Shown piece by piece: positions 24,711-30,157 of a stretch of DNA of 64,000 nt (positions within the stretch are counted from its first letter, which is position 1; every line of letters starts with the position of its first letter). This DNA comes from a virus (taxonomy: Duplodnaviria > Caudoviricetes). The translations under genes and the position numbers were made by a program. The notes below the pieces were generated by a model. The model saw only the letters and a program-made list of their open reading frames with translations. It made no database searches and was not told where the DNA came from. The stretch spans positions 1,162-65,161 of IMG/VR virus record IMGVR_UViG_3300047160_004775, one strand, 5' to 3'.

Positions 24711-25326
24711 CTTGGAGCTCCTTCGCGACGATGGCCTTCAGCCCCTGGATCTGGCTCGCTCGGGCCTGGAGGAGCTTGAGTTGCTGAACCATATCGACCT
24801 GGATGTTGAGGCGGTGCATCGCCTCCCACCAGGCCGCGTCCATGTGCTCGCCGGTGCAGAACCGGTAGAGGCGCTCGCAGGAGCCCTGGAAGCGTAGCGC
24901 GCCCCACTCCAGGGTCATGGTTCCCGGTTGCCGGCTGATCTGGCGCAGGAGCTCATAGCGGAGCTGCATCTCGCTCTCGACGCCCGTCAGACCGAAGCGC
25001 GCGAGGCTGGCGCACACCTCATCGACCGGCCGCAGGATGACGGCGAACTTGGCCTCAGGCATCATCCGGCGTATCAGCCGCCACGCGAAGGCCGCGCCGG
25101 TTTCGCACGTGCCGGCGAGCTCGAGGTTCAGCCGCCACGCGAAATCCGCCGGTGTGTCACACGTGACACCGATATCGTGACCCACCACGCGGCCGGGCGC
25201 GCCCAGGAAGGCGCTGAGCCACGCCGAGCGAGAACGGGGCAGCGAAAACACCAAAAACGGCGGTTGCTCTGCGAGCCTATCGCGGCAAGATGCGACTACG
25301 TTTCTCACAAGAGATACCCATGGCAA
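24703..25326 (-). CDS. sulfotransferase-like P-loop protein (start uncertain)
   Basis: FLVFSLPRSRSAWLS PAPS-loop-like motif; AKFAVILRPVDEVCASL. Confidence 0.75.
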   Translation of the reverse strand: MPWVSLVRNVVASCRDRLAEQPPFLVFSLPRSRSAWLSAFLGAPGRVVGHDIGVTCDTPADFAWRLNLELAGTCETGAAFAWRLIRRMMPEAKFAVILRPVDEVCASLARFGLTGVESEMQLRYELLRQISRQPGTMTLEWGALRFQGSCERLYRFCTGEHMDAAWWEAMHRLNIQVDMVQQLKLLQARASQIQGLKAIVAKELQDA

Positions 25327-27747: not shown

Positions 27748-28770
27748 TTATGCCGCCTTCAGACCGATGTTCACCGGGAGGTCCGACCAGGGCGCGCCGG
27801 TAGTGGGGTCGACTTCCCAGCTCTGGAAGTTGTTGTTCTGCCAGGTGTAGCCCATCGCGAAGGACGAGCCCCAGAAGTCCGTCGAGCCAGAACGCACCCC
27901 AGGCTGGAACAGCGGACCACCAAAGGCTGCGATCTCTGCCCTCGCGCGGATGCCCAGAGAAGTGATCTGCCAGGACCCGGCCGGAAGCGAACCGATGGTG
28001 TACTGGTCGATCAGGCCAGAGGCCGAGGCGCCGTCGTAGGTCGAGTCGTCGATGCTGATCTTGTTGACGTGCGAAGCGGCCGGCGAGCCCACGTCGAAAT
28101 TGTGGGTGTTGCCGTTGGCGACTGGAGCGAGGGTGACGAGGCCGGCCATCCCGCGCGTGTCGGAGTCACTGACGATCACCTCGGACCAATAGATGTTGAA
28201 GGAAGAATTAAGGTAGGAATTGGAGCCAAGCTGCAGCCCGTTAACGCCGACGGTCGTTCCATCTGTCGTCACGTCCCCGACGTAGGAGAAAATCAGGGTG
28301 TTATTCTGGTAGATGTTAAGCATTCCGGTCGTAGAGTAGATTAGCTGAACGTCCATTTTCGTAACAGCGTTAGCTGGAATCCACTCCTGTCCGATGGTCC
28401 CGAGCGACGTCGCGGCCCCGGCGGCGTTTTGCTTGTAAACCGTACAGAAGGCCGCGCCGGTAGAACTGGATTCCACGCGAATTCGCGGCACCGCGCCATC
28501 GCAGATGCGCAGGATGTCGTTGGCATTGTTGTGTCCCAGGAACTGCGTCCAACACTCTGCACTGAGCCACAAGCTGGACGCGTAGGACGTGAAACTGTCC
28601 AGGGCTGACCAGAAAGCGCCGTTATGCACGCCAGGGTCCGCGTAGCCCACCAGTGCGCAGCGCGCGACACCAGAGCGAAAGGTTCCCGCAGCGGTGCTGA
28701 CGAACGAGCCGCCAGACGCTGTGAAGTCCACATCCTCGCCGCCGTAGAAGTAGAAGACCGGCGTGCTCAC
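27748..28770 (-). CDS. tail/receptor-binding-associated protein (paralog of 8291-9256)
   Basis: GGEDVDF N-terminus; WEVDPTTGAPW C-terminus; lower-GC middle. Confidence 0.75.
   Translation of the reverse strand: MSTPVFYFYGGEDVDFTASGGSFVSTAAGTFRSGVARCALVGYADPGVHNGAFWSALDSFTSYASSLWLSAECWTQFLGHNNANDILRICDGAVPRIRVESSSTGAAFCTVYKQNAAGAATSLGTIGQEWIPANAVTKMDVQLIYSTTGMLNIYQNNTLIFSYVGDVTTDGTTVGVNGLQLGSNSYLNSSFNIYWSEVIVSDSDTRGMAGLVTLAPVANGNTHNFDVGSPAASHVNKISIDDSTYDGASASGLIDQYTIGSLPAGSWQITSLGIRARAEIAAFGGPLFQPGVRSGSTDFWGSSFAMGYTWQNNNFQSWEVDPTTGAPWSDLPVNIGLKAA
27961..28174. repeat. 214-bp segment with a diverged copy at 29321-29534
   Basis: 27 mismatches by manual alignment; first 57 bp identical. Confidence 0.95.
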
Positions 28771-28783
28771 GGAGCGCGAGCTC

Positions 28784-29287
28784 CTATAGTTGTTCGTAGA
28801 TCAGGTGGGAGCCGATCGCGCCGGGCGTCCCGCCAGTGTAGGCCGACAGGCTGATCTCGCCGAGCGACGCCGCGTTGCCGTACATCCAGATCTCCTCGTC
28901 CGGCGCCGAGACCCATCGGATGATGCCCCCGAAGGCGTTGAAACTCAGGGCGAGGAGCTTCGCCGAGGAGGAGCGCTGGGGAACGGTGGTGGCGCTGATG
29001 AACGGCTGCGGCGGGCTCGAGAAGGCCGATGCGTTGTCGGTCAAGGGCGCGTCGTTCGCTGAGCCCGAGAGCGCGCTCAGAGTCGCGCCCACGGTGGAGT
29101 CCCGGGCGACGGCCATGTTGCACGGCGTTGAGCTCGAGGCCTGGCCGCCGCAGTAGATTTCCATCAGGCGGATGCGCGCGGTCGAGGAGCCGCCCTGAAG
29201 CGCCATGTAGCCCGAGTTGGTCATGTTGGTGGTGTCGGCGACGCCGACGGGCGTCCACGTCTGGTTGGAGAACGCGCGCTTAGACAT
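28784..29287 (-). CDS. virion structural protein
   Basis: 167 aa; GAAGGAGG RBS. Confidence 0.8.
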   Translation of the reverse strand: MSKRAFSNQTWTPVGVADTTNMTNSGYMALQGGSSTARIRLMEIYCGGQASSSTPCNMAVARDSTVGATLSALSGSANDAPLTDNASAFSSPPQPFISATTVPQRSSSAKLLALSFNAFGGIIRWVSAPDEEIWMYGNAASLGEISLSAYTGGTPGAIGSHLIYEQL

Positions 29288-29322
29288 GGTCGACCTCCTT
29301 CAGCCGCGTCTCGGCATACCAG
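29246..29322. repeat. 77-bp perfect direct repeat, copy 1
   Basis: Identical to 29531-29607; contains the RBS and first 14 codons of the 28784 gene. Confidence 0.97.
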
Positions 29323-29572
29323 TGATCTGCCAGGACCCGGCCGGAAGCGAACCGATGGTGTACTGGTCGATCAGGCCCGGCGTCGTAGCGCCGTCGAACG
29401 TCGAATCGTTGATGATGATCTTATTCACGTTCGACGCGGCCGGTGTCCCTACGTCGAAGTTGTGGGTGTTGCCATTGGCGACCGGAGGGAGGGTGACGAG
29501 ACCTGCCATTCCGCGCGTGTCGGAGTCGCTGACGGGCGTCCACGTCTGGTTGGAGAACGCGCGCTTAGACAT
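29300..29572 (-). CDS. chimeric 90-aa ORF (duplicated start fused to a tail gene fragment)
   Basis: MSKRAFSNQTWTPV fused in frame to a 70-aa allele of the 27748 protein; has its own RBS. Confidence 0.7.
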   Translation of the reverse strand: MSKRAFSNQTWTPVSDSDTRGMAGLVTLPPVANGNTHNFDVGTPAASNVNKIIINDSTFDGATTPGLIDQYTIGSLPAGSWQITGMPRRG

Positions 29573-29607
29573 GGTCGACCTCCTTCAGCCGCGTCTCGGC
29601 ATACCAG
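29531..29607. repeat. 77-bp perfect direct repeat, copy 2
   Basis: Identical to 29246-29322. Confidence 0.97.
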
Positions 29608-29837
29608 CGCTTGTCGATCGCCTTGGAGGCTGTGAGGTCGCCCTGGCCTTCGAGGTGATCCTCGTCCAGCGCCAGGAGGCCGATGTCCTGATCCTTGTAG
29701 ACCAGGATCTGCGGCGCGCCGGCCGGCGGCTCGGGCGCCGAGTAGTCGATCTCCCGCACGCCGGACTTCACGTCCATGCAGGTCCCGACGACGCCGTGCA
29801 CTCCACAGCGGTACTTCGTGCCGATCTTCAGCGGCAT
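29565..29837 (-). CDS. hypothetical virion-module protein
   Basis: 90 aa from MPLKIGTKY; stop overlaps the next start. Confidence 0.65.
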   Translation of the reverse strand: MPLKIGTKYRCGVHGVVGTCMDVKSGVREIDYSAPEPPAGAPQILVYKDQDIGLLALDEDHLEGQGDLTASKAIDKRWYAETRLKEVDHV

Positions 29838-30157
29838 GGGATCGTCTCCAATGCTGGAAGCCCCTTCACGACGCGCTCGTGGGCATCGTCGATCAGTTGG
29901 GCAAAGGTCCGGCACGCGCCGCCGGAAGCGACCCGGATGGCCTCGCATCCGTCACAGATCAGGTGGTCGCACGTCGGGCAGTAGGCTCTGGCCCGGGTTC
30001 TCGCGGGGTTCATCACCACCACGCCATTGCAGTGCGAGCACGTGAAGGTCGGGCACTCGGCGACGGGCGCGCAGAACAGCGGGGCCGCGTCGGCCGGCGG
30101 CGGCGCGTGTCTGTTCTCGATGAACAGCCAGCCTTCCTTGGCGCGCTGCGTCTTCAC
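29828..30157 (-). CDS. Cys-rich zinc-finger protein
   Basis: FTCSHCN...YCPTCDHLICDGC; GTGA-coupled. Confidence 0.7.
   Translation of the reverse strand: MKTQRAKEGWLFIENRHAPPPADAAPLFCAPVAECPTFTCSHCNGVVVMNPARTRARAYCPTCDHLICDGCEAIRVASGGACRTFAQLIDDAHERVVKGLPALETIPCR

Follow-up and report, generated by a model that had tools for sequence, protein, structure and literature searches.

The question raised by this locus is how a fragment of a structural gene came to lie a second time in the same gene cluster, enclosed by a perfect direct repeat, and whether this arrangement was left by recombination, represents a functional element or originated during assembly.

Genomic context of the locus

The IMG/VR record has a length of 65,161 nt and is classed as linear; the window, i.e., the stretch analysed here and to which positions refer, comprises 64 kb of it. 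The estimated completeness of the record is about 99% (CheckV) and its GC content about 65%. It consists of one metagenome-assembled contig, and the insertion structure is known from this contig alone. At the ends of the 65,161-nt record neither a terminal overlap, including one of k length, nor a terminal inverted repeat was found. No match to cultured GenBank phages was obtained for the region on the protein or the DNA level, and all of its relatives stem from metagenome or IMG/VR records. The Ga-style names of these records look like those of soil samples, and the virus is presumably an uncultured soil phage.

All genes around the insertion are located on the minus strand. In coding order, a gene for a head-closure/connector-like protein of 469 aa (phrog_578) is followed by a 268-aa ORF, a gene encoding a small Cys-rich protein (29828-30130) and an intact 90-aa gene (29565-29837, product MPLKIG...EVDHV), hereafter the upstream gene, whose stop overlaps a start codon inside the repeat. 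This start opens a second ORF of 90 aa (29300-29572), the hybrid ORF, situated between the upstream gene and the intact, conserved 167-aa gene gp167 (28784-29287), which in the relatives always adjoins a homologue of gp340. The 340-aa gene gp340 (27748-28770, phrog_6368) is followed by two further genes: the product of the first, 225 aa in length, matches a minor tail protein family in its C-terminus, and that of the second, 271 aa in length, contains a He_PIG Ig domain.

Anatomy of the repeat, the insert and the hybrid ORF

The direct repeat (29246-29322 and 29531-29607) is exact over 77 nt and not extendable by one base on either side. It brackets 208 inserted nt (29323-29530), which together with overlaps of AG (29321-29322) and GACG (29531-29534) shared between copy and repeat constitute a 214-nt copy (29321-29534, minus strand) of gp340 codons 200-270. 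Its resident counterpart (27961-28174, minus strand) lies inside the gp340 gene, 1.36 kb from the insert. Both segments align without gaps and differ at 27 positions (87% identity), with 18 differences at the third, 7 at the first and 2 at the second codon position; on the protein level 9 of 71 residues are changed. In the whole 65,161-nt record, exact repeats of at least 25 nt are limited to the 77-mer and a 57-mer situated within the copy, and chance is thus excluded. The repeat, the bracketed copy and the 27 nucleotide differences had been reported in a preliminary description of this DNA and were confirmed in the sequence, as were the nine amino acid changes.

On the coding strand the repeat contains the 3'-terminal 41 nt of the upstream gene, the ribosome-binding site GAAGGAGG and the gp167 ATG with 13 further codons (MSKRAFSNQTWTPV). 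In case of the first repeat copy in coding order (29531-29607, minus strand), the upstream gene portion is the genuine 3' end of this gene, and the ribosome-binding site, the ATG and the first codons now open the hybrid ORF. The second copy (29246-29322, minus strand) carries the ribosome-binding site and the true start of gp167, whereas its portion of the upstream gene, a duplicate of the tail, is translated in another frame and provides the last six codons of the hybrid ORF and its TGA. The hybrid ORF accordingly encodes 14 aa of gp167 (MSKRAFSNQTWTPV), 70 aa of foreign gp340 core and GMPRRG, and terminates six codons into the second repeat copy, just ahead of the second ribosome-binding site. 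The in-frame duplication of a strong ribosome-binding site together with the first 14 codons of the next gene, and the resulting 90-aa hybrid ORF, agree with the preliminary description. Both neighbours of the hybrid ORF, i.e., the upstream gene and gp167, are intact.

Predicted structure and conservation of gp340

The AlphaFold (AF2) model of gp340, computed with 32 homologues, reached a pLDDT of 86.6 and a pTM of 0.86. In the model a ConA/LamG-like jelly roll (approximately residues 1-203) is followed by a second, C-terminal beta domain. Among predicted structures, gp340 comes closest to an Achromobacter phage protein annotated as "virion structural protein" and to uncharacterised podophage proteins of comparable length, e.g., those of VpV262 and Roseovarius phage 1; matches in the PDB are generic ConA-like jelly rolls. 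Based on the phrog_6368 match and the predicted fold, gp340 is assigned as a putative virion structural protein.

According to the model, the part represented in the insert (residues 200-270) comprises the end of the last strand of the N-terminal domain, a linker and, from the C-terminal domain, only the first two out of approximately nine strands. This block is the most conserved one of the family, with 17 of the 25 invariant alignment columns, and relatives share 54-69% identity in it compared to 33-42% over the whole of gp340.

Allelic origin of the insert

A search of 5.8 billion protein clusters yielded a metagenomic homologue of 341 aa, P0003, which is 91% identical to the hybrid protein over the aligned part, compared to 83% for resident gp340. 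Counted column by column, the insert matches P0003 at 64 of 71 positions and the resident at 62 of 71; for the first 52 residues the numbers are 48 and 43, respectively. Eight of the nine residues differing from the resident correspond to states found in other homologues, the ninth, P251, occurring in none of them. Among these differences, Asn234 is present in the insert and in all 31 other aligned homologues, whereas the resident has His (28069-28071). With regard to residue 234 it is the resident allele that is unusual.

These residue patterns indicate that the insert represents a different natural allele of gp340 and not a decayed copy of the resident gene. P0003 is itself not the donor. 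Outside the core block it is only 42% identical to resident gp340, which makes the closest carrier known for an allele of this kind another phage and not a strain variant. A donor allele, which the preliminary description had proposed to look for in related phages, was not found in scans of IMG/VR, metagenomes and GTDB genomes; these scans, which covered the empty site in close relatives as well, gave only distant relatives with at most 69% amino acid identity in the core.

All 27 differences are confined to 157 nt, while the final 57 nt of the insert in coding order (29321-29377) are identical to resident positions 27961-28017 (permutation p = 0.003). The same contrast is seen for third codon positions, of which 18 of 53 differ in the divergent part and 0 of 19 in the identical tract (Fisher p = 0.002). 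Due to the presence of a 57-nt identical tract beside 157 divergent nt, the insert itself is a mosaic. The tract could derive from a further homologous switch onto the resident gene or from later gene conversion, or the donor could already have shared it.

The differences are mostly synonymous, as would be expected from divergence between two working full-length alleles before copying took place, and are hence uninformative with respect to selection on the hybrid ORF. Reading the low number of amino acid changes as a sign of such selection is therefore not supported.

Two other origins of the insert were considered. Divergence in situ of an old internal duplication was rejected, since the insert shows 13% divergence and residues typical of the family that are absent from the resident, although the repeats are identical at 77 of 77 positions. 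The insert might instead be a relic of a former resident allele, left when the 5' part of gp340 was exchanged at a later time; this reading, though conceivable, was not supported: as judged by eye, the resident resembles P0006 both before and after the block. P0006 is the closest full-length homologue of the resident overall (71% identity over the whole protein and 69% outside the block homologous to the insert).

Occurrence in related loci

In all 22 related loci that were fetched, the gp340 core occurs once per locus. Neither a second copy of the segment nor a comparable small gene was present in the relatives examined, and gp167 comes immediately after the upstream gene in every relative whose sequence shows both. 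The hybrid protein forms a cluster with one member, from one contig, among approximately 15 billion proteins. True stand-alone homologues were not found in this set. Only two short matches were obtained. One is a gene call lacking the N-terminus that opens with the same VSDSDT motif; the other was predicted on a contig of 1,085 nt, whose end probably truncates it. The exact junction pattern gave 0 matches in IMG/VR.

From the single core per related locus and the singleton status of the hybrid protein, we infer that the insertion is derived and private to this record. The identity of the repeats at 77 of 77 positions suggests that it is also recent. The gene order of the related loci indicates that the junction of the upstream gene and gp167 was rearranged more than once within the family.

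Junction homology and candidate mechanism

The two junctions of the insert differ in the extent of shared sequence. At junction Jb only AG (2 nt) is shared. At junction Ja the GACG microhomology is part of a longer patch in which the end of the insert (29517-29534) matches native gp167 (29232-29249) at 15 of 18 positions. Outside the exact repeat this patch still contains 11 matches in 14 positions, a similarity reached with a frequency of 1.9e-4 by random pairs from the genome, and no other patch in 28784-29620 reaches 13 of 18. The microhomologies GACG and AG of the preliminary description were thus recovered, the former within a 15/18 patch of microhomeology. The position of Ja in the best local homeology favours a real template switch guided by homology, or an unequal crossover followed by a deletion.

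Judged from the sequence, it is fairly probable that the locus bears a recent scar of illegitimate recombination in the tail module, into which the allele of a related phage was copied. The setting would be a cell in which a related phage or prophage was present as well; during replication, part of the relative's gp340 allele would have been copied into the junction of the upstream gene and gp167. In a single step, the growing strand would leave its template after gp167 codon 14, at the 18-nt patch of imperfect homology, copy approximately 210 nt of the foreign gp340 core, and finally be re-primed on the original template 77 nt upstream of the point of exit by means of a 2-nt match, as in MMBIR/FoSTeS. 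In two steps, an unequal crossover of co-infecting genomes at the AG junction would first generate a heteroallelic duplication of 1,647 bp (27961-29607), and a deletion of 1,070 bp between the 15/18 imperfect repeats would then remove most of the first copy. Both routes lead to the same product and are not separated by the data. The 57-nt tract identical to the resident would be explained by a further homologous switch or by gene conversion between insert and resident.

The double template switch onto a related allele given in the preliminary description thus stands as far as a templated insertion from a related allele with duplication of the target is concerned, whereas the switching itself is one of two routes of equal outcome. 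The duplication of 77 nt preserves the end of the upstream gene as well as the ribosome-binding site and start of gp167 with their overlapping stop and start, which accounts for the viability of the rearranged genome. Presumably only products in which this overlapping stop/start junction was preserved would survive.

A role of a RecT-like protein, which had also been considered, found no support: six-frame searches of the whole record with the Pfam families RecT, ERF, Rad52 and YqaJ gave no match. The lack of a RecT, ERF or Rad52 family recombinase in the record argues to some extent against a real event.

Assembly artefact as an alternative

As 77 is the largest default k of SPAdes for 150-nt reads and is also used as an intermediate value by multi-k pipelines, the length of the repeat deserves attention. 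An arrangement of repeat, insert and repeat could have been produced by an assembler or scaffolder, or by chimeric library molecules, and be absent from any phage genome. For example, a short edge of low coverage from a co-occurring relative could have been set between edges adjacent in the graph, with the 77-mer vertex shared by them printed twice. We regard such an origin as possible, though less probable than a real rearrangement.

If the event is real, a duplication of exactly 77 nt is an uncomfortable coincidence with a common SPAdes k. Moreover, the structure is present in a single IMG/VR metagenome contig, the inserted sequence corresponds to a variant form of a gene located 1.36 kb away, just as a co-occurring relative would supply it, and a set of 15 billion proteins contains neither the hybrid protein nor the insert allele a second time. 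Since an exact 77-nt repeat with copies 208 nt apart should vanish fast, its presence in a real genome requires either recency or selection.

However, insert and repeat share exactly only 2 and 4 nt. Joining them in a de Bruijn graph would therefore have required reads that contain the junctions; otherwise the join was made outside the graph. There is also no reason for a breakpoint determined by a k-mer vertex to hit the only 15/18 patch of the region, the chance of which is about 2e-4, and conversely, artefact routes that exploit the homology patch do not predict a length of 77. Furthermore, the product is an in-frame fusion that leaves the genes on either side undamaged, and the record as a whole is free of Ns and of other odd repeats. 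Since the closest known allele shares only 42% identity with the resident beyond the core, the insert may stem from another phage and not from a strain able to tangle the graph. In case of library chimeras, two compatible junctions would have been needed at a coverage sufficient for assembly. If the arrangement is nevertheless an artefact, it serves as a warning that exact repeats of k length flanking fragments of variant alleles can mimic recombination in metagenome-assembled viral genomes.

Coding potential of the hybrid ORF

Returning to the recombination scar as the favoured interpretation, the in-frame 90-aa hybrid ORF is probably a by-product without function. No PHROG or Pfam match was obtained for it. 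Folded alone, its product gave a pLDDT of 47 and no confident structure (AF2), which is weak evidence, since the prediction was based on a single sequence. The preliminary description had offered gene birth in progress as one interpretation, which is not borne out by a partial domain, the low pLDDT, the singleton status among 15 billion proteins and the lack of true stand-alone homologues in this set.

That the hybrid ORF is a selected small gene, e.g., one encoding a fragment of a rival's virion core that poisons the assembly of co-infecting relatives, or that the insert is a donor cassette for conversion of gp340, is improbable. The ORF is in frame, its strong ribosome-binding site and start are identical to those of a structural gene, and the 57-nt tract identical to the resident shows that exchange took place between the two copies or their templates. 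On the other hand, the protein is a singleton that lacks stand-alone homologues, has only two strands of a C-terminal domain that comprises about nine, and adopts no confident fold alone. The insert covers the most conserved and not a variable part of the family, it is a single cassette that is not silent, and the exact repeats argue that the event is too recent for selection. Selection on the hybrid ORF for high expression of a rival-core fragment from the copied start of a structural gene, interfering with the assembly of relatives, or for service as a conversion donor, is thus to be viewed with strong scepticism. If it were nevertheless selected, the locus would show the birth of a gene from a templated insertion, caught in the act.

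The second interpretation of the preliminary description, a silent allele cassette for conversion of the tail protein, is unlikely as well. Gene conversion from silent cassettes of the pilS or vls type was rejected due to the presence of only one copy, which has its own ribosome-binding site and ATG and corresponds to the most conserved block (17/25 invariant columns). Precise excision by means of the repeats, as suggested in the same description, would be permitted by the direct-repeat geometry.

Relation to known mutational processes

The event is most likely a new instance of a known, ordinary kind of mutation and not a new gene or a new system. Of the features of a templated insertion, the locus shows a copy of a template located elsewhere, microhomology or microhomeology at both junctions, and return to the original template with a duplication. 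In MMBIR, templated insertions show microhomologies of 2-12 bp that are often extended by interrupted "microhomeology" (PMC8421209), and both junctions of the insert are within this range. The present locus resembles the MMBIR/FoSTeS insertions (MMB-TI; Osia et al. 2021, PMC8421209) with regard to the copied segment and the microhomology or microhomeology at both of its junctions; in addition, synthesis returning upstream of the point of departure results in a flanking duplication. However, those insertions were described in yeast and human and are mostly short, with templates within about 100 bp (PMC8421209), whereas here a phage genome carries an insert of 208 nt, the homologous position is 1.36 kb off, and the template was another allele. 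The latter implies that a second genome was involved.

Phage mosaicism offers a second point of comparison (Martinsohn, Radman and Petit 2008, PMC2327257). Co-infecting relatives exchange sequence at short or diverged homologies, the junctions coincide with the borders of genes or lie close to them, and products that are not viable are lost. Recombination by lambda Red is efficient between sequences that are 22% diverged (PMC2327257), and the 57-nt identical tract is compatible with recombination of diverged phage sequences. In contrast to a typical mosaic joint, which swaps modules, a gene fragment was added ectopically here and the fresh duplication is intact. A further difference to the mosaicism described in PMC2327257 is that no Red-like recombinase was detected in this record.

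A pair of diverged tail-module gene segments approximately 1.4 kb apart is also reminiscent of the template and variable repeats of a diversity-generating retroelement (DGR). This candidate was rejected, as the differences are not A-specific and mostly synonymous, the segment is conserved and not variable, and a six-frame search of the 65-kb record gave no match to a reverse transcriptase (RVT_1). Likewise, an IS element or transposon with target-site duplication was rejected due to the absence of inverted repeats at the insert ends and of coding capacity, the nature of the insert as a gene fragment, and the length of the duplication of 77 nt. False duplications and chimeric joins of short-read assemblies share with this locus an exact repeat of k-mer-like length flanking the sequence of a co-occurring relative in a single draft; they differ from it in that its junctions lack shared k-mers for a graph join and one of them lies in a significant homology patch.

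If real, the locus captures cleanly, in nature, the way in which phages acquire mosaic joints and small chimeric ORFs. Its freshness lies in the exact duplication of the target, the legible homology at the breakpoints and a donor that is visibly another allele, which makes it illustrative and not new in kind.

Minor observations on gene order and repeats

The protein encoded at 29828-30130 carries the motifs CxxC...CxxC...CDGC and could be assigned to neither a Pfam nor a PHROG family over the stretch tested. Its gene is found a short distance upstream of the gp167-gp340 pair, both in this phage and in the four distinct relatives with a match (L003/L009, L004, L005, and L012/L019). The 90-aa gene follows the Cys-rich gene here and precedes it in L005 (29565-30130 compared to L005:4264-4832; 30.7% identity, E = 2e-5), and no such gene separates the Cys-rich gene from gp167 in L003. 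Elsewhere in the window, at 25074-25177, two imperfect direct repeats of 50 nt, 54 nt apart, are 74% identical.
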